A stretch of 64,000 nt of DNA from a virus (lineage: Duplodnaviria; Caudoviricetes). The DNA lies in the IMG/VR virus record IMGVR_UViG_2904541872_000002, positions 1,693-65,692 of that record. One strand, 5' to 3'. Shown in pieces: positions 7,682 through 62,102 of this stretch. The translations under genes and the position numbers were made by a program. A model generated the notes under the pieces. The model was not told the DNA's origin. It was given only the letters and a program-made list of their open reading frames with translations, and did not search any database. Every line of letters begins with the position of its first letter. Within the stretch, counting starts at the first letter, position 1.

Positions 7682-10600
7682 TTAGTGCGCATCCGCCCGA
7701 GCGCGAGCAAGTTCTTCTTGCATCCGCGCGCGCATCGCACGCGGCGCCGTGTCAGCGATGCGCTGGTCCTTCGACCTTTGCATGTTGCGCACCCGCTCCA
7801 GTACGCTCGGGATGCGGATCACCATGGGTTGGTCGGGATTCTTCGCGTTCCAATCCGCGATCGCCTCGCGCGCGGCGCGCACCTTCGCATCGTCCTTCTC
7901 GAAGATGCCAGCCGCCCACTGCGCTCGGATCTCCTGGCCGCGCAGGTTGTAGAAGGCCTTCGCCTGCTGATTGAGGGCGTTCGCCTCCTGGATGGTGGCC
8001 ACGCTCTGCGGCTGGAAGCCGATCGCCTTCAGCGCCGCCTCGAGGTGGTTGGTCTCCAGCACCTTGTAGCCCTTCGCGTCGCGATACATGCCGGTTGCGG
8101 CCATGTCCACGCCCTTCGCCGCGTTGCGCACGGCTGTGGGCGCGACCTCCAGTGCGCCGGCGCCGACGTTGCCCTTCGCCACGTTCAGCGCGCCGGAGAA
8201 GATGCGGCTCGCGAAGTCGCCGGCCGGGCCCGCGATCTCGAGCACGTCGCGCGTGTGGCTGGTCTTCTGCTGCAGCAGCCCGGTGCCCGGGATCAGGTTG
8301 CCCATGCCCAAGCGGCCGGACACGTCCAGCGGCGCGCCCGGCAGGCCGCTCACGCCCTTGTCAAGGAAGTCGGCGATGCCCTTCGGCAGCATCGCTTCGA
8401 GCACCTCCTGGCGCGCCTTCTTCGCCGAGAAGTTGTAGCCCAGCAGCTGCGCGAGCGCGTCGGCCACATCCTCGGCGTCCTCGGCGAATGGCAGGCCACC
8501 CGAGCCGCCCATCAGCATCAGCATGCCCAGCGCCAGCAGCGCGGCGCGCTTGCCCTCGGGCCCACCCTGCGTGTACATGCGGTGCAGCAGCTCGAGGTAG
8601 GCGATGGAGTAGGTCTTGAACGTCATGAGCGTGCCGCCCACGGCGCCGCGGCCCCATTGCATCTTCGAGGCCTTCGAGTAGACGAATTGGGTTTCCTTCA
8701 CCGCGCGGTTGGCGAATGCAGCGGGATCGGCCTCGCCGCGATCGCGCGCCACGCGGTAGGCGGCGATGAATGTGATCCGGCGATTCACCTGCTCGGCTGC
8801 GCCAAAGACCTTGCCCCATGCGAGCGACAGCCGCGCCAGCGCATTCTGGCCGGCGGCCCGGGCCTCGCCCAGCCGCGTGCCGTCGCCAGCGCGCAGCGAA
8901 CCCGAGCCGCGGGCCTGCGCCATGAGCTGGTGCACCTCCTGCGGCGCGACGACGCCCTCGTCCTCGGCGGTCTTGAGCGCCTTGGCCAAGTCCGGCTCGA
9001 ACTCGAAGCCCTTCGTGGCCATGTTCTTCGCCGCAGTGCCCAGCGCCGCGGCCGCCTTGCGCGCGCCGCCAAACTGGCTGAGCCAGGGGAACGTCACAGC
9101 GGCCGGCTGCGTCATGTTCACGAACGCAGAAGCGATCGAGCCGCCGAGGTACTGCGCGAACAGCAGGCCGCGCACCGCCTGCGCTTCCTCCTGCGGGTTC
9201 TTCACGTACTCGGCCAGGCGCACGGCAACGTCTTTCAGCTCGCCCTGCTCCTTCGGGATCGCGTTCACGGCCTCGCCCAGGTCGCCCATGTTCAGGCCGG
9301 CGGCAGTCTGCCGCGCATTGCTGTAGATGAAGCTGGCCAGCACGCGGCCCACGTCCTCGCTGAAGCCCGCGATGCCCTTGCGATGGATCAGGCGGCGCAT
9401 AGCGCTGCGATTGGTCTTCGTGAGCTTCAGGTACTCCTGGAAGGCCTGGTCCTGCGCGCGATCGCCGGTCGAGCTGAGGCCCAGCGCATTGCCGAACAGC
9501 TCGAGCGTCTCGGGCGTGACGCCGGCGAACATCTTGAAGGCCTCCTCGGACAGCGTGCCCTGGCTGACTGCGCCCTCGCCGAACTCGCCGCGCATGCGCG
9601 CGGCCATGGTGTTGGCCTCGCGCGCGGTCTCGAACAGGCCGAAGTACTGCCGCTCGCCCTTGGCATCGACGACGTCGACCGAGTAGCGGCCGAAGCGCGA
9701 CAACGGCGCGTAGCCGCGGGCCTGCAGATCGCGCACCTTGTCGGCCCGGTCCATGATGCCGTTGGCGGTGTTCATCAGCAGCGTGGAGCGGTCGGGCTGG
9801 TCGGCCGCGAGCTGCGCGAGGTGATCGCGGATCAGCACCGCCGCCGCCTGCGCGTCCGGCGCGTCCATCACCATCGTGCGCAGGCCCTTGGCGTCGTCGC
9901 CTGCAAAGCGCAGCATGTCGGCGCGCGCCATGGTGTCGAGGGAGCGGTTCGTCGCTTCCCGGAACTCCCGGTACAGCGCGACCTGGTCGTCGGTCAGCTG
10001 GAACATGCTGCGCAGCTCCGCATCGCTCCAGACCACGCCCGGCTGCAGCATGCGCGACTCGTAGCGCGACGCCACGGCCTTCTCGTACGACTCGAGCGGC
10101 ATTCCCTGCCAAGCCTTGAGCATGCGCTCGTCGAGCATGCCGTTGCGCAGCAGGCGCTGGGCCTTCTGCTCGGATGTGAGTCCGGCCGCGGCATCGATCA
10201 GGGACTGCACCTGCACCGGCTTGCCCTGCTCGTCCCGCGCCCAGGTCAACGTGCCCTCGAAAACCGGCTTGGCCACCGCTGCGTTGTCGGCGGCGGAGAT
10301 AGGCGACTTCTTGATGTCGCGCCAAGTCTCCAGCTTCGGCAGCAGCTTGGGCGCCAGTTCGGCCGCGTCGGTGGCGTAGTGGCTCACATCGTCGACGAAG
10401 CCCTGCGCAGCATCGAAGACGGGCTTGAACGCCGGCGAACGCTCGGCCAGGTTGTACATCGTGCCGATGGTCTTGTGCCACCAGCTGAGCCGGCCCGGCG
10501 CCGAGAACGACTTGTTGAGTTCGGCGGCCGCGGTGCGCGCGTACTCGCCCACGGTCGAGCGGCTGAACATGATGTCGGGGTTCGACTCGTCGAAGGTGCC

Positions 10601-16600: not shown

Positions 16601-16855
16601 CTTGAAGCGCACGCCAGCGTCCTCGACGGCCTTGCCGGCTCGGCCGCCGGTGAACAGGTCGGCTACACCGACCACGCTCTGCGGCAAGCCCACTGCGCCC
16701 TTCAGCGCGGTGATGCCAACGTCCTTGGCAACGTCGAGCGCGGTGCGTTTCGGCGCCGCGGGCTCGACCTCTTTCGCACCAGCTTTCCACCAGCCGTCAC
16801 CGGCTGGTGCCGACTCCTCGGGCTTGGCGCCCTGCTGCCACCAGTTCTGTTCCAT
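7682..16855 (-). CDS. Giant polyvalent internal virion/ejection protein (ParB-like, LPD5-, LPD1-, LPD3-like, two zincin motifs, ART-PolyVal-like, PLxRFG domain)
   Basis: 3057 aa; LKPTQ...DGHHQW; IQDAGEKIGGARKD; HEWAH; YWTRPTEMFARAFESWV; HEVLGH; FHGT/GFYFT/REFIV; YAPLSRFGRY. Confidence 0.9.
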   Translation of the reverse strand: MEQNWWQQGAKPEESAPAGDGWWKAGAKEVEPAAPKRTALDVAKDVGITALKGAVGLPQSVVGVADLFTGGRAGKAVEDAGVRFKDTQDILADQYSDAQKAANRKVAEADGFVGTAQAMLENPSTIATSVGESIPQMLGGAGVARGVLATGAKIAPAIAGAIGEGVLGAGSQAEQIRQETTDGLLTPQQAALAAASGVTTTAFGAAGGRVAQRLGIGDADTMLAQGSIRGAGHASQRSLARQVGEGVLSEGVLEEVPQSMAEQALQNLALDKPVGEGVGAAAAQGLLAGGAMGGGAALVHGAGARGESAAAPAAEPLQLGYQPDTLVAFPDGTVGRQAEVDAYLARLPEEQRAAARTRLMGLAPQPSPPSTEAPAGAPAVRAAPLPSQAMGIDPAAGPLSTGAAIAVDSGAHGQLLQDAQRQADAAAMAEQEEATAANRAAPPVLDYSDLDERDRTLYDDYFHALDRETEGHMAAALEDDVPDFGDRNVTDEQFLRALGANDQEIADAIQAARGATGPEEGARGAVAPAADVAQGAQPAAAAAPAEQGRAEPAKAIAAPAAPAAAVDAAAAPTSVRDGIARARARRAAPPAPAAPAPAPAPAPAPAPAPAPAVPSARREKAQRRVEEGKAWFLSQAKADAFVSENGLADTHEVVPENRRYVVKERSATSAAPAAPAAHPQAREPLPAAKQLGRAADGEWSTFAADSGTKGVPRSEMPQIRAEHRGAMVNFMSARGIAHTDETVPAASLKPTQAEFSPDRVQWAGEFTGGDRAILVSSDGHVLDGHHQWLAARERGEDVRTIRLDAPIDLLLEAAREFPSSTLDDASAPTPTPTPTPTPTSTPTPTPTPTPTPTPTPEPEPEPTPTPTPTPTPEPTALPSGRPVEAKEPEKKRPPRTPAAAPAESIQDAGEKIGGARKDRWKERGLNVSDLNEMSEAEGAELATKANIWKPDWTALVSGGMNPVTAASAKVIYDRLAAQPKDNTPAGRRRYVRMMQAVRAVYSELTPENIAGAKERLLYDHLRWTEGRSDLARRNAAGIEDLGAHQREARATLFSVYKGRSDPFVLDHSDLMRVRKMVADGFPAKGEPWARRFGVREASGKSLTPRGRELTLEQSAEMGTPLTAEQIAGSYFEVRRQIGGRVLAYAMTREDAEAAARRLYEAELASTTRGQEPERPHLDVLQRAGLPQRLDRDATPDDFIRDFGFRGIEFGNWSAQDERQRIINMAYDGLSDLAQVMGVPPSAMSLNGTMGLAFGARGGGRFAAHYEPGRLVINMTKIRGGGSLAHEWAHALDHYFGELEQADAYQGRARGASGWYTQGSYDGDPQRTGRRGRLENLRPELASAFDRVMSTIYREQVDRAALVRDAELTLERAQARLAGTADEDLKRIYSTGVDSARQNLAKALGLPPDAVRQGRKESSYYESSLGIKEGKESYWTRPTEMFARAFESWVFDRIKAMGARSDYLVHGVESGVQYPAGLERARINQAFDQLATTIETRAGENGNTALFRRGDDGLAGMSPEAANAMRALSRPTYSPQARAQAVATVRKTVDAIRSAWGNAPDIVVAFDMNDAAVPEAARRADLRQRSGGARGAPEGFYYRGKAYLMASRLGTAEDAARVLYHEVLGHHGLRGTFGKQLDGVLNQIATMRRTEVDAKVREYGLRGVNKLDRRAAAEEVLAEMAQNTPELHFVRRAVAAIRTWLRENVAGFRGLRLTDDEIIRNFILPARAFVERSAGAAAPRAGLAFSRAEGTDPDAESRAFLEGAPVAQMTGKEFAPDGVPITEKVTEHYATTGNAQVEVPGIGLVSLDRQSVKSSLFHGIGRDKATAFAAVPDVLKNGKIIHAEAMEGARDAGMVYHVAAPVRISDRDMVEVVLVKADSNAKRMYVHEVVLREKLQQSAFEAGAGAAGAGVQSRADAGAIRSVLDRIYSVNPAEGEPTGTEQTSTPAFRAWFGESKVVDAQGAPLQVFHGTTAEFTAFNDEFLGEGDGNADWGNGFYFTDQKQAAAAYAEGEGGRVMDVYLSLKNPAPLEVVNQVMEQPGAEMDDDYVRQELISRGYDGIIVSHQGGGREFIVFQPGQIKSASGNAGTFDESNPDIMFSRSTVGEYARTAAAELNKSFSAPGRLSWWHKTIGTMYNLAERSPAFKPVFDAAQGFVDDVSHYATDAAELAPKLLPKLETWRDIKKSPISAADNAAVAKPVFEGTLTWARDEQGKPVQVQSLIDAAAGLTSEQKAQRLLRNGMLDERMLKAWQGMPLESYEKAVASRYESRMLQPGVVWSDAELRSMFQLTDDQVALYREFREATNRSLDTMARADMLRFAGDDAKGLRTMVMDAPDAQAAAVLIRDHLAQLAADQPDRSTLLMNTANGIMDRADKVRDLQARGYAPLSRFGRYSVDVVDAKGERQYFGLFETAREANTMAARMRGEFGEGAVSQGTLSEEAFKMFAGVTPETLELFGNALGLSSTGDRAQDQAFQEYLKLTKTNRSAMRRLIHRKGIAGFSEDVGRVLASFIYSNARQTAAGLNMGDLGEAVNAIPKEQGELKDVAVRLAEYVKNPQEEAQAVRGLLFAQYLGGSIASAFVNMTQPAAVTFPWLSQFGGARKAAAALGTAAKNMATKGFEFEPDLAKALKTAEDEGVVAPQEVHQLMAQARGSGSLRAGDGTRLGEARAAGQNALARLSLAWGKVFGAAEQVNRRITFIAAYRVARDRGEADPAAFANRAVKETQFVYSKASKMQWGRGAVGGTLMTFKTYSIAYLELLHRMYTQGGPEGKRAALLALGMLMLMGGSGGLPFAEDAEDVADALAQLLGYNFSAKKARQEVLEAMLPKGIADFLDKGVSGLPGAPLDVSGRLGMGNLIPGTGLLQQKTSHTRDVLEIAGPAGDFASRIFSGALNVAKGNVGAGALEVAPTAVRNAAKGVDMAATGMYRDAKGYKVLETNHLEAALKAIGFQPQSVATIQEANALNQQAKAFYNLRGQEIRAQWAAGIFEKDDAKVRAAREAIADWNAKNPDQPMVIRIPSVLERVRNMQRSKDQRIADTAPRAMRARMQEELARARADAH
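14235..14376. repeat. Hexamer microsatellite (GGGCGT)n with GGGCTC variants, encoding a (PT)n/(PE)n linker
   Basis: About 23 tandem 6-bp units, in frame in the giant protein. Confidence 0.95.
15021..15070. repeat. Hexamer microsatellite (GCCGGT)8 encoding an (AP)n linker
   Basis: Eight perfect 6-bp units. Confidence 0.95.
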
Positions 16856-16861
16856 CCCCCC

Positions 16862-16902
16862 ATCCTCTGCACGAGGGAGGGGGGAGTCGAACCCTAGAGG
16901 GG
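16862..16902 (-). promoter_or_regulatory. Late promoter element copy 2 (giant protein), predicted leaderless
   Basis: CCCCTCTAGGG-TTCGAC-N18-GAGGAT, ATG 7 nt after. Confidence 0.75.
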
Positions 16903-16962
16903 TCCGCCCCTCGCGGGGTAGAGTCCGGTCACGACAACAGGACCCCGCAAGGGGCGGACGAA

Positions 16963-17193
16963 ATGGACGATCAAAAGGCAGCGGACGAGATCGCCGGAAC
17001 GGTGCTCGCCATGAGCTCAGCCATACGGGCGCTCATCAAGACTCACCCGGCTCCGGAGGCGTTGGCTGCTGCATTGCATTTCGAGTATCAGGAAAGCCTC
17101 GCGCTGGTAACTGCGGCTCCGATTCGCGAGCACGTTCTGCAGACGTTTCACACTGTATGGGCATCGGTTGGTCCGAAAGACCCAGATGGCTGA
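16963..17193 (+). CDS. Small hypothetical protein (76 aa), divergent cargo gene
   Basis: MDDQKAADEIAGTVLAMSSAIRALIKTHP..., helical, lower GC. Confidence 0.65.
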   Translation: MDDQKAADEIAGTVLAMSSAIRALIKTHPAPEALAAALHFEYQESLALVTAAPIREHVLQTFHTVWASVGPKDPDG

Positions 17194-17566
17194 CAAGCTG
17201 GGCAACAGCGTCAGCTTTGGACGTCAATCTGAACGCCGCGGCGCCGCTTGAACCTGGCACTGGGCGCTTCGGGTCGTCTCGGTTGACCGGCTCGGGCTCA
17301 GGCGGCTCCCGGCGCCCTCCGAAGCCAGCAGCACGAGAAATTGCGTTGGCCGCGCTGCTGTGCGACGGCACCGCGTTGATTGCCGCCATGCCCGCGGACC
17401 ACATCGCATTGAGCGATTGCGCGGCCGACAGCGCGGCTCGCGCCTTCGTCTCGACCAACCCGAAGTCGATCTCGGAACGGGCTGCCTGAACGCCAGCATG
17501 CGCTATGGAGAACCTGCGGTTCCGGCCGACACGCATCCTCATCAGGTGCCAGGAGGCGTGATGCAT
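17036..17566 (-). CDS. Hypothetical protein with segment resembling the C-terminus of 21157..22200
   Basis: ATG 17566 with AGGAGG RBS and TGATG coupling; KARAALSAAQ...AGMAAIN versus KVRATMASAQ...AGLNAIN; 3' part overlaps a plus-strand gene. Confidence 0.45.
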   Translation of the reverse strand: MHHASWHLMRMRVGRNRRFSIAHAGVQAARSEIDFGLVETKARAALSAAQSLNAMWSAGMAAINAVPSHSSAANAISRAAGFGGRREPPEPEPVNRDDPKRPVPGSSGAAAFRLTSKADAVAQLVSHLGLSDQPMPIQCETSAERARESEPQLPARGFPDTRNAMQQPTPPEPGES

Positions 17567-17715
17567 CACGCACCTCCTTTTGCTGCAGGGCTCGCGGCAA
17601 CCAGCCGTGTCGGCGGCTCTCCGACGTAGAAGCGCAAGGCGTAGCCGCCGCCCTCGGTGATGAAGTGGCCTTCGGCGACGTGCACGAGGCGCTCGGGCTC
17701 GAGTTCGGGGTTCAT
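17566..17715 (-). CDS. 49-aa hypothetical protein (MNPELEPERLVHVAEGHFITEGGGYALRFYV...)
   Basis: Sits 7 nt downstream of a full late-promoter copy; stop overlaps next start. Confidence 0.6.
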   Translation of the reverse strand: MNPELEPERLVHVAEGHFITEGGGYALRFYVGEPPTRLVAASPAAKGGA

Positions 17716-17721
17716 GGGGCC

Positions 17722-17762
17722 AGTCTGGCGCTGGACGACGGCACCGCCGAACCCCACAGGGG
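17722..17762 (-). promoter_or_regulatory. Late promoter element copy 3, predicted leaderless
   Basis: CCCCTGTGGGG-TTCGGC-N18-CAGACT, ATG 7 nt after. Confidence 0.65.
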
Positions 17763-17813
17763 TACGTGCGTGTCCTGCTACATTTCGTTTCATCCGAAGT
17801 CCCGGAGCGAGGA

Positions 17814-18236
17814 ATGGAACAAGCAACCGCCGAGCCGCCATCACCAGCACTGCGCCTCGGGCGCCACGCCGTCGGCATCATGGTCGCGGCCCTGGCCAAC
17901 CCGATGATCTACTTCAGCACCGATCAGGTGCTGGTGTGGCTCGCGACATGGGGCCCCGTGCTCATCGCCACGACAGTGATCTACGGGCTGCTCGCCCTGT
18001 TCCTCACGCGCCGCGCGCGCGCAGCGTGGCCTGGCGGCGCGATCGCGCTGGCATGGGTGCTCCTGCTGCTGCTGGTGGTCGGAAACTGGATGAACTATCA
18101 AGAGGCGCGCGCCGGGCGGCTTGCGGTTCCAGCCCCCAACGAGGCTTCGTCTCCGCAAGGTAGCGCTGGCGCGCAGGCGCCCCGACCGAGTTCTGACGAC
18201 GAATGGTGGAAGAAGGGCGCGAAGCCCCTCAACTAG
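17814..18236 (+). CDS. Membrane protein (about 3 TM) with C-terminal WWKKGAKP motif; moron, possible superinfection exclusion
   Basis: Start ATG 17814 after GAGG; three hydrophobic segments, Pro/Ala/Ser linker, ends SSDDEWWKKGAKPLN. Confidence 0.75.
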   Translation: MEQATAEPPSPALRLGRHAVGIMVAALANPMIYFSTDQVLVWLATWGPVLIATTVIYGLLALFLTRRARAAWPGGAIALAWVLLLLLVVGNWMNYQEARAGRLAVPAPNEASSPQGSAGAQAPRPSSDDEWWKKGAKPLN

Positions 18237-20284
18237 TCCTTGCGGTACCGCTTCCCGTCAGGACCGACGAACTCAGCACCGGCCGGCAAGGACGCTAGGC
18301 GCTGACGTCCTGCCGCATCGTTGGTGATGGTGGTGGGACCCGCAGCGCCCTGCCCCTGATCCAGCCGTCGCACTTCCCCGGTCGCAGAGTTGACCGCCGC
18401 CAGCACGCCCTCGGTCTTGTTGCCCGACGCATCGGTGCTGCCCTGCAGCGCCACGGGCTTCCACTCGCCCCCTGCCACCTTGCCCTGCATCGCCAGCAGG
18501 CCCTGCTGCGCGCGGGCCCGCTCCGACACCGAGGTCTTCGGGTCGAGCACGATGCGACGGAGCGCGGCCTCGTCTTGCGCTGCTGCGACCTGCGTGTCGC
18601 GCAGCCGGTTGACACCGGCCAGTTCCTCGCGCCGGATCGAGTTGGTGTCCGACGCGCGCCGGTCCTCGGCCGCGATGCGTTCGGCCTGCAGCCGCGCGGC
18701 GGCCGTCTCGCGCTGGGCCGCGCTCTGGAAGCCGAGGCCGGCGCGCTGCGTGTCCGCTGCCTGCCGCCCCGCCTCGAGTTCGGCTTGCTGGCGATTCTGC
18801 ACCGGGACTGCGGCCGCGGCGATCGCGCCCTGGTCGGACTGGAAGCCGCGCCGCGGGCTCCACGAGCCGCGCGCGCCCGCCGTGCGTAGATCCGCCTGGT
18901 CGAACATGGCCTGGGCCGCAGCCGGGCCGGGGTTGTTGATGACGGAGAGACCGCCGACCGGCACAGAAGCGTTGAACGCGCGCAGGTTCGCGGCCTGCGC
19001 GTTGGCATCGTCAAGGCTGCCAGCCACCGGGCGGCTACCCGCCGTCGGCCCGAATCCACCAGGTGCTGTGGTGGTGCTCTCCGGCGCCGCGACAGCTGCT
19101 GGCGCTGCCGCCGGTGCGGCGACGGGCGCAGGCGGCGCGACGGGCGCAGCAGCCGCCGCGGCCGGGGCCGACGCGGGCGCCGAAGCCGGCGCGCTGATGC
19201 CGAAGACGGGCGCGACGCCTTGGCGCGCAGCTTCGGCGCCGGCGGCGCGGTCACGCTGGTCCTGCTCGAAGCGAGAGACGACTCGAGATTGCTGCTCGTC
19301 GGTCAGCGGGTAGCCGCTGTAGCGCATCGAGGCATCGTTCGCCGATGCCACAGCGCTGGCTGCAGGTTGTGCCGACGGCGGATTGACCGCGCCGCGACCA
19401 GCACCAGCCGCCGACGGCGCACCGAAGCCGGCCATCTGTTGCGCCTGCGGGCTCGGCGGCAGCGAGGGCGTGAGCATCGGCAGCGGGGCCGGGATGCTGG
19501 CGCCGAGGTCGCTGCTGCCGGTGCTGGCCGCCGCCGGCCGCGGCGCGCCGAGTTGCACGACGCTCGAGTCTCGCGCGGCTGCTGCGGCGTCGCCGAAGCT
19601 GCTCGCGCGCCGGCGCGCCTCATCATCGACGGGCCCACCGTTGGCATAGCCGCGCGGTCGGAAGCCGAAGCCGTTGCCAGCAGCGGCCGGCGCTTCGGCG
19701 GCGGGCCGCCCCGAGAATCCGCCCACGAACCGCACCGCATGGGTCGGCACGGGCTGAGCTGCTGCCGCCGCTGGCGCCGGACCGTCGATCATGCTGACCG
19801 TGCCGCCCGGCGCGCCGCCGTTGATGCTCACCGGGCCGGTCACGTTGCCGCCGCTGTAGGCGTTGCCCTTGCGGGTCACGGCCCCGCCGTCGGCGAAGAA
19901 CAGCGCGCCCTCGGAGTTGAAGCCGAAGCCCTCGGGCACCGGCGTGTGCGTCGCATCCTTCATCGCGTCGAGCGCCTGCACGCCGACGGCATGCACCTGC
20001 TCGGGCGGCAGACGGTACTCGCCGTTGCTCAATCGCACGTCAACGCCCTCGCGCGCGCTGCGCGGGCTGAAGCCTCGTGCGCCCATGTTGCCGAGCGCCG
20101 CTTCGCCGAGCTGCTCGGTCGAGTCGGCCGGCATGATGTAGCTGCCGGCCGGGACCGTGTCCTCGATGGAGTCCGAGGTGCCCGTGGCGGGCCCGCGGAT
20201 CAGGCCGCCATCGGCCTTGTGCTGCCGCGCACCGTGCGCGGCCTGGGGCGTTTTGCGCACTGCGCGTGGTTGAAAGCCGTGCAT
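18233..20284 (-). CDS. Internal virion/ejection protein
   Basis: 683 aa; three (F/Y/K)A(D/N)GG motifs, GPATGTSDSI...LSNGEY motif, Ala/Pro linker, C-terminal LPAGAEFVGPDGKRYRK. Confidence 0.8.
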   Translation of the reverse strand: MHGFQPRAVRKTPQAAHGARQHKADGGLIRGPATGTSDSIEDTVPAGSYIMPADSTEQLGEAALGNMGARGFSPRSAREGVDVRLSNGEYRLPPEQVHAVGVQALDAMKDATHTPVPEGFGFNSEGALFFADGGAVTRKGNAYSGGNVTGPVSINGGAPGGTVSMIDGPAPAAAAAQPVPTHAVRFVGGFSGRPAAEAPAAAGNGFGFRPRGYANGGPVDDEARRRASSFGDAAAAARDSSVVQLGAPRPAAASTGSSDLGASIPAPLPMLTPSLPPSPQAQQMAGFGAPSAAGAGRGAVNPPSAQPAASAVASANDASMRYSGYPLTDEQQSRVVSRFEQDQRDRAAGAEAARQGVAPVFGISAPASAPASAPAAAAAAPVAPPAPVAAPAAAPAAVAAPESTTTAPGGFGPTAGSRPVAGSLDDANAQAANLRAFNASVPVGGLSVINNPGPAAAQAMFDQADLRTAGARGSWSPRRGFQSDQGAIAAAAVPVQNRQQAELEAGRQAADTQRAGLGFQSAAQRETAAARLQAERIAAEDRRASDTNSIRREELAGVNRLRDTQVAAAQDEAALRRIVLDPKTSVSERARAQQGLLAMQGKVAGGEWKPVALQGSTDASGNKTEGVLAAVNSATGEVRRLDQGQGAAGPTTITNDAAGRQRLASLPAGAEFVGPDGKRYRKD

Positions 20285-20367: not shown

Positions 20368-21114
20368 TCAAAGCTCTCGAATCGACAGGCCTCGCTGGCG
20401 CAGGAGCGAGATGAAGTTGTCAGGACCAACGCAGTGGGACGCACCTACTGCCAGAAGGGTATTGGTCGCTGGATTTCCCGCCTGGAACACTGACTCGACC
20501 CACGCCCTGTTGCGGGACACGAGCACGGCTTCGCGAATCGCGGGTCGGCCAAACAATGGCGACTGGTCATTGAGAGATTGCACTGCTTCGCTATCTCGAG
20601 CGGCCCAGCTATCGAACATCGCATCGAACTGTTCTTGGGCGCGACCAACGAGTGGAAGCCCCAGCCTCATCGCAACCGCCACTTCGTCCTCGGGGATTGC
20701 GTCGAAACCGGCGGCCACCGCGGCCGCCTGCTCGATGTAGCGAAACGCCTGCCCCTTTTGAGCTAAGCGAGCACCGATGGCAGCCTCCGCGCCGGGAGCC
20801 AGCTTCACTCGCGACATTCCCACCTGCAAAAAGGCCGCCCAGGGGCGAAGGCTTTGAAGGTCTTCTTGGATTTTCGGCGGTCCGTCCCATGCGGCAGAAA
20901 GCGCATTCCAGATGTCGAGCGGCAAAAGCGCTTGCAGCCGACCTCCTGGCGCGAGCTTTCGATATGCCTGAAACGCTTGCACGTCGTGCTCTATGCAGCC
21001 CGCATCAGCCCACTGCGCTGCATCCGACACGAACTGCGGCACCACGCTGCCGACAGGAAAAGCATGCAGCGTGGCCAGAATGCGAAGACGGGTCCCCTCG
21101 ACTTCAAAGTACAT
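20368..21114 (-). CDS. TraB/GumN (TIKI-like) family protein, cargo gene
   Basis: TLH, IEH, SRNRAW and AVGASHCVG motifs; low GC; no signal peptide. Confidence 0.75.
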   Translation of the reverse strand: MYFEVEGTRLRILATLHAFPVGSVVPQFVSDAAQWADAGCIEHDVQAFQAYRKLAPGGRLQALLPLDIWNALSAAWDGPPKIQEDLQSLRPWAAFLQVGMSRVKLAPGAEAAIGARLAQKGQAFRYIEQAAAVAAGFDAIPEDEVAVAMRLGLPLVGRAQEQFDAMFDSWAARDSEAVQSLNDQSPLFGRPAIREAVLVSRNRAWVESVFQAGNPATNTLLAVGASHCVGPDNFISLLRQRGLSIREL

Positions 21115-50630: not shown

Positions 50631-50696
50631 ATTCTAAGGTGCGCCTAAGATAAAGCACAAGGCACACCTAATAAAAAGATTATTAGGATTGCCTAA
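50631..50696. promoter_or_regulatory. OR-like operator triplet and PR-like promoter
   Basis: TAAGGTGCGCCTAA 50635-48, CAAGGCACACCTAA 50658-71, TTAGGATTGCCTAA 50683-96; minus strand TTGTGC-N18-TAGAAT. Confidence 0.85.
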
Positions 50697-51463
50697 TGAG
50701 TACCCTTCAGCAGCGATTCGCCAAGCTGGCGGCCGAGAGGCCCGACATTTCGCAAGCCGACCTCGCGCGTGCGACGGGCGCCAAGCCGCCTTCCGTGAAC
50801 GCCTGGTTCAGCGGCGAGACGAAGGCGATGAAAGCGGTCACGGCCGCGAAGGCCGCACAGCTCTATGGGTGCAACACCCTTTGGCTTTCCGATGGGCAGG
50901 GCCCAATGTGGCCCCCATCGCGAGTTGTGCCCGTCGAGGGCGCCGGGCCAGACATGGAGGAACCTTCGGACGCGCCAACGCCCAGCGCTCCCGCTCCTCA
51001 CGCCGAGGACGGCGAAATCATCATCTTCCAGTACGACGTCATTGGGGGAATGGACAGTCGGGGAAAGCTACTGCTCGAGGCAGAGCCTCCGGGAATCATC
51101 AAGAGCTGGAGGGTTGATCGCGAGTGGTTGCAGCTCAATGTCCGCTCGTACACCAGCCTCGCGAACCTCTGCATCGTGACCGGCTTCGGCCCCTCAATGA
51201 AGGGCATGTTCAACCCGGGCGACCCGCTGCTGATGGACGTCGGCGTCAACCGGGTTGACCACGAAGGGGTCTACTTCTTTCGGGTTGGGGACGAGGGCTA
51301 CATCAAGATTCTGCAGCGCGTGCCCGAGTTCGACGGGCCGGGCTTCAGGCTCCGGGTGATCTCGAAGAACGAGGACTTCCCGCCCTACGACCTGTCGCCG
51401 AAAAACCCCCACCTCCGGATCATTGGCAAGATCCTCACCGTCTGGAAAAGCGAGCAGTACTGA
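50696..51463 (+). CDS. CI-like repressor (XRE HTH plus S24 peptidase)
   Basis: ISQADLARATGAKPPSVNAWFSG; GFGPSM..MF..GD; YIKIL; leaderless start inside third operator. Confidence 0.95.
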   Translation: MSTLQQRFAKLAAERPDISQADLARATGAKPPSVNAWFSGETKAMKAVTAAKAAQLYGCNTLWLSDGQGPMWPPSRVVPVEGAGPDMEEPSDAPTPSAPAPHAEDGEIIIFQYDVIGGMDSRGKLLLEAEPPGIIKSWRVDREWLQLNVRSYTSLANLCIVTGFGPSMKGMFNPGDPLLMDVGVNRVDHEGVYFFRVGDEGYIKILQRVPEFDGPGFRLRVISKNEDFPPYDLSPKNPHLRIIGKILTVWKSEQY

Positions 51464-60777: not shown

Positions 60778-61008
60778 ATGTCCATCGTCCTGACTGAAGA
60801 CGAGCTGCAGGCGATCACTGGCTACAAGGTATCCACCATGCAGCTCGCGGTACTGCACAGGCGCGGCTTCTACCGCGCATTCATGGGCCGCAAGGGCGTC
60901 GTGCTCGAGCGCAGCCACTACGAGTCCGTGACCCGCGGCGAATCCACCTCGCCGACCGGCGGCGTCAAGAAATCGATCAACCTTTCCCACCTGAAACTCG
61001 CACAATGA
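60778..61008 (+). CDS. Excisionase-like protein (DUF4224 type)
   Basis: LTEDELQAITGYK...QLAVLHRRG; GGAG RBS; ATGA overlap with integrase. Confidence 0.75.
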   Translation: MSIVLTEDELQAITGYKVSTMQLAVLHRRGFYRAFMGRKGVVLERSHYESVTRGESTSPTGGVKKSINLSHLKLAQ

Positions 61009-62102
61009 TTCGCCCACGAGCCACCCCGGACGGCCTGCCGTTCCGGGTCTATGAGAGGTACGGCAAGAAGGTCTACAGCATCGGCTACAAGATGAAGTCC
61101 GGCCGCTGGGCGTTCAAGCTGCGGTGCCAGGTCGACGATGCCAACCAGGTGCGCAAGCTCCGCCGCCAAGCCATCGAGGACTCGGCGCGCATCATGGACG
61201 ACGTGCCCGAAGGCGGCTTCAGCGGCTTAGTGAATGCCTGGTTCGCATGGCAAGAGGGACTGCCCGACACGTCCGCGGAGAAGCGCGCGGAATCGACGCG
61301 CACCGAGAACCGCCGCGAAGCCGACATGCTGCTCAAGTCCTTCGGGCACCTCGAGGTCGGCGAGATCACCCGATCGATGGGCTACCAGTACCTCGAGGCC
61401 CATCAAGAAGCCGGCCGGCCCGAGAAATCGAACAAGGAAATCGCGCTCGCGCGCCTCATCCTCGAGTACGCCATCCGCAAGGGCATGATCGAGACGAACC
61501 CTTTCGACAAGCTCACCAAGAACAAGCGGGTGAAGGAAGCGAAGCGCTATGTCACCCACGACGAGCTCGAAATCGTCGTAGCCACCGGCCGGGAGCTCGG
61601 CGGCCCGTATCACATCATCGCCCTGGCACTGAAAACCGCATGGCTCTGCGTGCGTCGGTCGTTCGAAGTCCGCAAGGTCACCATCGACGCGATCACGGAC
61701 GACGGCATCCTCTGGACCGACTCCAAGGATCCGACGAAGCCGAGGATCCTGATCGAGTGGTCCCCCGAGCTGAAGGAAACCGTCGAGGAGGCCCGCGCGA
61801 TCAAGCGCAACAAGCTGGCCGGCTCGTTCCTGCTGTTCGGCAACCTGCAGGGCCAGCGCTACACGAAGTCGGGTTGGGGAAAGCTACTGGGCACGCTCAT
61901 GGCCACGGCCGAGGAGCACGCGCGTGCGCTGGATCTCGAGTTCGAGCACTTCTCGCTGCAGGATTGCCGGCCGAAGGGGGTGAGCGACAAGCTCGAGGCT
62001 GGCCACACGGACACGCAGGAGGCCACGCTGCACACCGACGGGAAGATGATCGCTCGGGTCTACGACCGTCGGCAGCTCAAGAAAGCGACCCCAGCGGGGT
62101 AG
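61005..62102 (+). CDS. Tyrosine integrase
   Basis: 365 aa; core-binding NKEIALARLI, catalytic CVRRSFEVR, QDCR, LH, VYDR; adjacent to tRNA-Asp. Confidence 0.9.
   Translation: MIRPRATPDGLPFRVYERYGKKVYSIGYKMKSGRWAFKLRCQVDDANQVRKLRRQAIEDSARIMDDVPEGGFSGLVNAWFAWQEGLPDTSAEKRAESTRTENRREADMLLKSFGHLEVGEITRSMGYQYLEAHQEAGRPEKSNKEIALARLILEYAIRKGMIETNPFDKLTKNKRVKEAKRYVTHDELEIVVATGRELGGPYHIIALALKTAWLCVRRSFEVRKVTIDAITDDGILWTDSKDPTKPRILIEWSPELKETVEEARAIKRNKLAGSFLLFGNLQGQRYTKSGWGKLLGTLMATAEEHARALDLEFEHFSLQDCRPKGVSDKLEAGHTDTQEATLHTDGKMIARVYDRRQLKKATPAG

Follow-up and report, generated by a model that had tools for sequence, protein, structure and literature searches.

Why does a small membrane protein of a prophage end in a copy of the peptide with which a giant virion protein of the same prophage begins? 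This question is raised by a 64-kb stretch of phage DNA (64,000 nucleotides (nt), called the window below), which belongs to the 65.7-kb record IMGVR_UViG_2904541872_000002, classed as a complete provirus. The giant polyvalent protein is encoded on the minus strand. Its N-terminus reads MEQNWWQQGAKP...GDGWWKAGAKE, where the second copy of the motif (GWWKAGAKE) stands 17 residues after the first. The membrane protein of 140 amino acids (aa) is encoded on the plus strand. Its C-terminal end is SSDDEWWKKGAKPLN, followed by the stop codon, and the longer stretch up to 18236 is DDEWWKKGAKPLN. A first-pass annotation of this DNA had noticed two WWxxGAK copies at the start of the giant protein and a third at the end of the membrane protein. 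A six-frame scan of the 64 kb confirmed them, since WW..GAK occurs exactly three times, at 16823-16843 (minus strand), 16772-16792 (minus strand) and 18204-18224 (plus strand). There are 83 WW dipeptides in the six frames, and the expected chance count of WW..GAK is far below one. The nucleotide identity between the membrane-protein motif and the first copy of the giant protein was counted again. It is 21 of 24 nt over WWxxGAKP, as the annotation had stated, and 22 of 27 nt over nine codons. From the sequences, we consider it somewhat probable that the membrane protein is a decoy, which would face the periplasm, seize an ejection protein of an arriving phage by its C-terminal module and so bring about a SieA-like exclusion by peptide mimicry.

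The match of the two motifs was followed in the genomic contexts of membrane-protein homologues and in further relatives (loci numbered L001 onwards). Fifteen distinct loci possess both the giant N-terminus and the membrane tail. In 15 of 15, the motif at the end of the tail agrees with the tandem one at the N-terminus of that locus's giant protein, and the motifs fall into seven unrelated classes. In the WW class (the window, L001, L009 and L027), both proteins carry WWxxG[AS][KT]. In the LKPF class (L004, L010, L017 and L032), both carry LKPFxGxLD. The FxYEE class (L016) has FSYDDA and FSYEDA in the giant protein and FTYEEA in the tail, and the DWEKG class (L021 and L022) has DWEKGAL and DWERGAI in the giant protein and DWEKGAL in the tail. 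Two loci belong to the xDxxLxD class ([IV]DxxLxDxP). The giant protein of L019 carries IDNILNGAP and IDEILKDAP, and its tail partner IDEILKDAP; in L029 the corresponding motifs are EVDAFLEDSP and DVDAFLDD. The NPF class (NPFxDPNYG; L020) combines NPFSDPNYG and NPFSNPDYG with the tail motif NPFKDPNYG. Finally, the VDLF class (VDLFxxxGI; L040) combines VDLFELAGI with VDLFDKFGI. With eight representatives, the observed pairing obtained the top summed 9-mer score among all 40,320 permutations. The distance from giant motif to tail motif varies from 527 to 5187 nt across the loci. The first-pass annotation had predicted that the two motifs would co-vary, and this was found in every informative locus; the homologues keep a terminal motif, and it changes with the giant protein.

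The remaining loci were left out of this count for the following reasons. L007, L013 and L014 (Comamonas) are remnants without a giant gene nearby, L038 is a remnant in a chromosomal context, and the contig of L039 is too short. L007 is the Comamonas thiooxydans prophage in CP083938, a cultivable relative. L015, L028, L030 and L031 have other tail types or doubtful matches. L018 has lost the giant N-terminus. At 7797-9800 of that locus, the giant N-terminal region is replaced by several genes on both strands with differing composition, beside the membrane gene, whose tail carries IPFNGKLD and two FDP[ST]TARPV repeats.

The motif-coding stretches of the giant and membrane genes are inverted repeats on the DNA. 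In L019, 9 of 9 motif residues are identical and only 3 of 9 codons are; in L004, 7 of 9 residues are identical and 2 of these 7 share the codon. Since identical residues mostly use different codons, selection acts on the peptide and not on the DNA. A 60-nt identity profile was calculated between L001 (WW) and L004 (LKPF), which are near-identical phages of different class. Two patches stand out in it. The first covers the giant N-terminal motif (37-53% identity), and the second covers the tail and the C-terminal module of the neighbouring late protein (15-45%). Conservation is high around and between them, with 86-100% identity in the intergenic region and the cassette gene that separate the patches and 85-90% in the membrane-helix region. 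The comparison of the window with L001, both of the WW class, gave the converse. Both patches are common to the two (74-98% identity), and the cassettes between them are unrelated. A single linked block cannot explain the match, because the two patches flank conserved DNA in one comparison and unrelated cassettes in the other.

The second patch points to a possible partner of the motif. The gene of a 683-aa late protein is convergent with the membrane gene, and all loci, as well as the Pseudomonas phages USP_18, 8P and PA8, keep it beside the giant gene. The protein is conserved as far as ...GEVRRLDQGQG, and about 30 residues beyond this point are class-specific. Same-class pairs have 74% identity in this module on average, even if identity over the preceding 100 aa falls to 24-44%, and such likeness across different backbones was seen for the WW, LKPF, DWEKG and FxYEE classes. 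In contrast, different-class pairs share 21% on average in the module, even if identity over the preceding 100 aa reaches 79-93%. An AlphaFold2 model of the module shows a short helix and a beta-hairpin with a predicted local distance difference test score (pLDDT) of about 80, and a Foldseek search of the C-terminal model against the PDB gave no match at E 0.001 or better. Because the module switches class together with the motifs, it is likely the receptor of the motif, as judged from the sequence comparison.

The cultured Pseudomonas phages USP_18, 8P and PA8 (the last a Hollowayvirus) have no membrane gene, and their giant gene directly follows a gene for 634-724 aa. Their giant proteins comprise 3.8-4.9 thousand residues and the N-terminal motif is still doubled, as DQKPWESF in USP_18 and 8P and as TWGENDKIV / DFGANDEVV in PA8 (motif sites at L023 9616-9855, L024 9650-9889 and L036 4926-5105). 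Since these phages retain the tandem motif without the gene, the membrane protein is accessory. In the metagenomic locus L037, the C-terminal module is of the USP_18/8P type, and the membrane tail ends in EGPWTKYQK, which resembles the DQKPWESF repeats. Therefore, the module predicts the motif class in phages with and without the membrane gene. USP_18, 8P and PA8 are tractable for studying the docking idea. The giant protein of the window carries the Pfam domains ART-PolyVal (E 1.8e-31), LPD1 (E 3e-20) and LPD3 (E 6.5e-07). It thus combines several conflict-related domains and LPD linker domains in one phage protein, as polyvalent proteins do, and in phage 8P the homologue bears the annotation of a structural protein.

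The open reading frame (ORF) of the membrane protein is coding-like. Its GC content at third codon positions (GC3) amounts to 0.77 for the whole ORF and reaches 0.92 within the helices, and GGAG/AGGA lies upstream of the ATG. The protein has 13 close homologues, a profile search collected 129 representative family members, and no family in Pfam and PHROGs matches it. The claim of three transmembrane segments agrees with the AlphaFold2 model, in which three long helices are followed by a tail of about 40 residues with pLDDT below 50. A conserved basic loop, TRRARAAWPGG, joins helices 2 and 3. In 14 homologues, this loop has 2-4 Lys/Arg and zero acidic residues, 2-3 basic residues are found at the N-terminus, and loop 1 usually has a single acidic residue besides 0-1 basic ones. 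The positive-inside rule puts the basic loop inside the cell, so the N-terminus is predicted to be in and the C-terminus out, with the tail facing the periplasm. The homologue alignment contains 20 invariant columns in the membrane helices. E130, W131, W132, K133, K134, G135, P138 and N140 are invariant among homologues that are 40-48% identical overall, and closer homologues bear quite different tails. The terminal EWWKKG[AS].P.N is kept while the preceding linker varies, which, together with the low pLDDT of the tail, is the pattern of a short linear motif. The stops of the membrane gene (plus) and of the 683-aa gene (minus) share one palindromic CTAG at 18233-18236, so the two genes overlap by 4 nt. 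A simple scan for terminator-like sites found two, weak and at chance level. A holin role was set aside, because the related prophage L007 has a separate lysozyme-containing lysis cluster and the membrane gene lies in the accessory cassette.

Among the tails of the 129 representative members, ten or more types of short motif occur, and a single tail often has two to four motifs. For instance, P0046 carries DWERGAM and EWWKKGAT, P0030 carries FTYEEA and LKPFTGKLD, and P0076 carries IDEFLRDAP and NPFSDPNFG. P0048 has four, TWGENDK, DWGAGDKE, FTYEEA and NWDDFTPVDD. The tails of P0099, P0098 and P0071 repeat a single type in two or three copies. Wherever the context is known (L004, L016, L012 and L040), the tail ends in a motif of the phage's own class. 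Some of the multi-motif tails include the class found at the giant N-terminus of the Hollowayvirus PA8. Judged by their sequences, the foreign-class motifs would fit a widened exclusion range.

Other variants of the family were also observed. In P0026, P0031, P0032, P0044 and P0045, and in a second set, P0039, P0043, P0049, P0053, P0055 and P0057, globular C-terminal domains replace or extend the motif tail. One such domain in the family has about 150 residues and ends in ..NGCLTIV.I.G, and another recurrent one contains ..IYAAHPDADAIF... Orphan copies of the membrane gene are present in decaying prophages or chromosomal contexts (L013 9503-10435, L014 2689-3072 and L038 159-1153). The copies of the degraded prophages L013 and L038 are intact, and the multi-motif copy of L038 adjoins a truncated 151-aa remnant of the convergent gene. 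The L014 copy has a frameshift within the EWW motif. On one Comamonas contig, a tail-less copy stands just upstream of an intact WW-type copy.

Table 1. Features of the window, with positions counted from its first nucleotide.
Feature	Position	Strand	Basis or remark
Giant polyvalent virion (ejected) protein, 3057 aa	7682..16855	minus	ORF; Pfam ART-PolyVal, LPD1, LPD3
Motif copy 2, GWWKAGAKE, giant residues 21-29	16769..16795	minus	ORF and six-frame scan
Motif copy 1, NWWQQGAKP, giant residues 4-12	16820..16846	minus	ORF and six-frame scan
Variable accessory cassette between giant gene start and membrane gene	16856..17813		small ORFs, weak coding signals
Membrane protein, 140 aa, candidate decoy	17814..18236	plus	ATG at 17814; alternative GTG start at 17766
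Three predicted membrane helices, residues 11-33, 36-71, 75-103	17844..18122	plus	AlphaFold2
Linker, residues 104-129, unconserved	18123..18200	plus	pLDDT below 50; no conserved alignment column
Terminal motif EWWKKGAKPLN, residues 130-140	18201..18233	plus	copy of the giant N-terminal motif
Late protein, 683 aa, putative ejection or internal virion protein	18233..20284	minus	phrog_11341 and a short tape-measure-like match
Class-specific C-terminal module of the late protein, last ~30 aa, ..ITNDAAGRQRLASLPAGAEFVGPDGKRYRKD	18236..18325	minus	proposed receptor for the motif
TraB/PrgY/GumN-family gene	20368-21114	minus	Pfam E 6e-26; low GC3, 0.65; between two late genes
CI-like repressor	50696..51463		lysogeny gene of the window prophage
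Integrase	61005..62102		lysogeny gene of the window prophage

The window prophage is temperate, with a repressor and an integrase present (Table 1), and a glutamyl-tRNA synthetase gene of the host was found at the end of the provirus record. The minus strand carries the late genes for the portal, the major head protein, an Hc3-type connector and an adaptor; SU10_adaptor and P22_portal labels are present in related loci. The membrane gene is antisense to these late genes, as the first-pass annotation had described. The ORFs of the cassette between the giant and membrane genes had no family match in Pfam. Compared with the cassette of L001, a near-identical locus of the same WW class, the window cassette is unrelated (0-50% identity). 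In other loci, this slot is occupied by a 194-aa gene, as in L001, or by Arc/Ant genes. A precomputed YjaZ label of the 194-aa gene was not reproduced by our own hmmscan at E 0.01 or better. At the position of the TraB/PrgY/GumN-family gene, L001 has a different 191-aa plus-strand gene and L004 has none. The content of this position differs among the window, L001 and L004, so the ejection-gene region has a second accessory slot here.

The proposed mechanism can be described as follows. The tandem N-terminal motif of the giant protein would dock on the C-terminal module of the 683-aa protein while the ejected proteins rebuild a DNA-entry conduit in the cell envelope. The resident prophage would make the three-helix inner-membrane protein with its motif-bearing tail in the periplasm. 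This tail may capture the module of an incoming phage of the same class in competition with the giant motif. With the module captured, conduit assembly would be stopped and DNA entry blocked, and same-class phages would be excluded. The exchangeable lock-and-key classes would be the outcome expected of an arms race between excluder and excluded phages. The interpretation of the first-pass annotation, a candidate membrane-tethered decoy, is supported by the co-variation that it predicted. We infer the module as binding partner, the periplasmic tail, the expression in the lysogen and the exclusion outcome; these are the parts in which the decoy goes beyond the observed match.

Several points weigh against the decoy. 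The topology was taken from the positive-inside rule alone, and a simple promoter scan for the membrane gene found no sigma-70-like site. The strong conservation of the membrane helices suggests that the anchor is more than a tether. The tails with several motifs could in part be relics of linker recombination, since the last motif always belongs to the phage's own class. Likewise, tail and module are encoded directly side by side and change class in every case as a single patch, so that their association, taken alone, could be linkage. Physically, only the giant N-terminus is separate from them, and its match to both is the independent evidence.

This adjacency also leaves room for a different partner. 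A host envelope protein might be shared by the giant motif and the prophage tail, and the 683-aa module would then only hitch-hike with the contiguous tail, with which it always switches as one patch. Exclusion would still work by mimicry: during entry the giant motif would bind a periplasmic or membrane factor of the host, and the prophage protein would keep that factor occupied, like the pIII of filamentous phages on TolA. The motifs do lie in N-terminal regions that look unstructured, like the TolB/TonB boxes of colicins. However, near-identical phages, presumably of one host, use unrelated classes, so that many host partners would be needed. Moreover, the module classes are discrete and conserved across backbones that are 24-44% identical, and the module is class-matched to the giant motif even in phages without the membrane gene. 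We regard a host partner as unlikely.

A role in the phage's own cycle appears less likely again. The membrane protein might hold the 683-aa protein by its module until the giant N-terminus takes over, as an assembly or hand-over chaperone. Such a role would agree with the highly conserved helices and with the constant presence of the own class as the last tail motif. It is difficult to reconcile with the complete absence of the gene from related phages and with its location on the opposite strand within a variable accessory cassette. The foreign-class motifs are not expected of a chaperone either. For assembly in the cytoplasm, a tail predicted to face the periplasm would be on the wrong side, and the degraded prophages L013 and L038 still possess intact copies.

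The conserved helices could also belong to a sensor of superinfection, in which tail capture signals through the membrane and causes, for example, lysis delay or abortive infection in the manner of T4 RI. Their conservation extends far beyond the needs of an anchor, and some members possess globular C-terminal domains instead of the motif tail. Nevertheless, no effector domain or conserved partner gene adjoins, the cassette genes vary, and there is no tie to lysis genes. The probability of a sensor is considered low, slightly below that of the chaperone. These three explanations, the host partner, the own-assembly role and the sensor, fit the data less well than the decoy.

Finally, a feature of the DNA itself is very improbable: the motif-coding stretches are inverted repeats with 21 of 24 nt identical in the window, but inversion or gene conversion is rejected by the differing codons of identical peptides in other loci and disfavoured by the two direct copies in the giant protein and the variable spacing, a single linked block by the two-patch identity profile with its near-identical DNA between, and chance by the permutation result and the restriction of the motif to three sites in the window.

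The closest known counterpart would be SieA of phage P22. SieA is a 162-164-aa protein of the inner membrane with three predicted helices, which blocks DNA injection, and the mutations by which phages escape it map to C-terminal parts of the ejection proteins gp20 and gp16 (Leavitt et al., mBio 2024, PMC10883804). Such sites of escape fit the view that SieA attacks where two ejection proteins join. For the conserved C-terminal motif of SieA, a cytoplasmic location is predicted; the study does not report that SieA mimics an ejection protein, and two SieA types that were compared did not differ in specificity (PMC10883804). The protein described here resembles SieA in being a small prophage protein with three predicted helices, encoded in a temperate phage on the opposite strand and convergent on an ejection-protein gene. 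The P22 sieA gene is convergent on ejection gene 16 and lies beside mnt/arc/ant, and the membrane gene of L009 lies beside Arc/Ant genes. On the other hand, no homology to SieA was detected when the homologue alignment was compared with P22 SieA (hhalign, probability 0.1, E 0.55), and the tail here is a class-specific copy of the peptide that is the probable partner of the presumed target. Because homology is lacking, the protein may be called SieA-like by analogy, and it would work like SieA without being a member of the SieA family.

Exclusion by HK97 gp15, Streptococcus TP-J34 and Lactococcus Tuc2009 is overcome by changes in the tape measure, a presumed conduit protein (PMC10883804). The likeness is that the block is overcome through a conduit protein. 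However, these are long-tailed phages and other protein families, for which no peptide mimicry or co-varying classes are described. The principle of competition for a docking site is familiar from other systems. Filamentous-phage pIII excludes by occupying TolA, and colicins carry TolB/TonB boxes as motifs in unstructured N-terminal regions. In each case, a motif or domain of an entry protein, made by a resident element or a toxin, competes for the docking site of import. The partner of pIII and of the colicins is a conserved host protein, whereas here it is likely a module of the phage, which changes along with the motif in many interchangeable lock-and-key classes. The giant protein itself is like other polyvalent proteins in carrying ART-PolyVal, LPD1 and LPD3 and in being a virion protein in relatives. 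In the literature searched, no description was found of a tandem N-terminal docking motif of polyvalent proteins and its mimic, and none of an exclusion protein that copies an ejection-protein peptide.

On how membrane excluders such as SieA recognise ejection proteins, the authors of the SieA study found it hard to see how the two go on interacting when both are so diverse (PMC10883804). The present sequences propose an answer that can be tested. The excluder may copy a docking peptide of 7-10 residues, and the peptide, its mimic and the candidate receptor would exist in discrete, exchangeable classes. If this is true, exclusion would be class-specific and could be changed by peptide swaps, and escape would need matched changes at two sites. 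The finding also marks a probable contact between two ejected proteins in a poorly known phage group. A broader proposal is made more tentatively and seems to us possible rather than probable. Short-tailed phages may join two ejected proteins by interchangeable pairs of peptide and module, in at least 8-10 classes, and prophages may expose several key peptides in a row to the periplasm, which would serve as a readable repertoire of exclusion. In that case, the tail motifs of a lysogen would predict the classes that it excludes, and the swap of a 10-residue peptide would re-programme its specificity.

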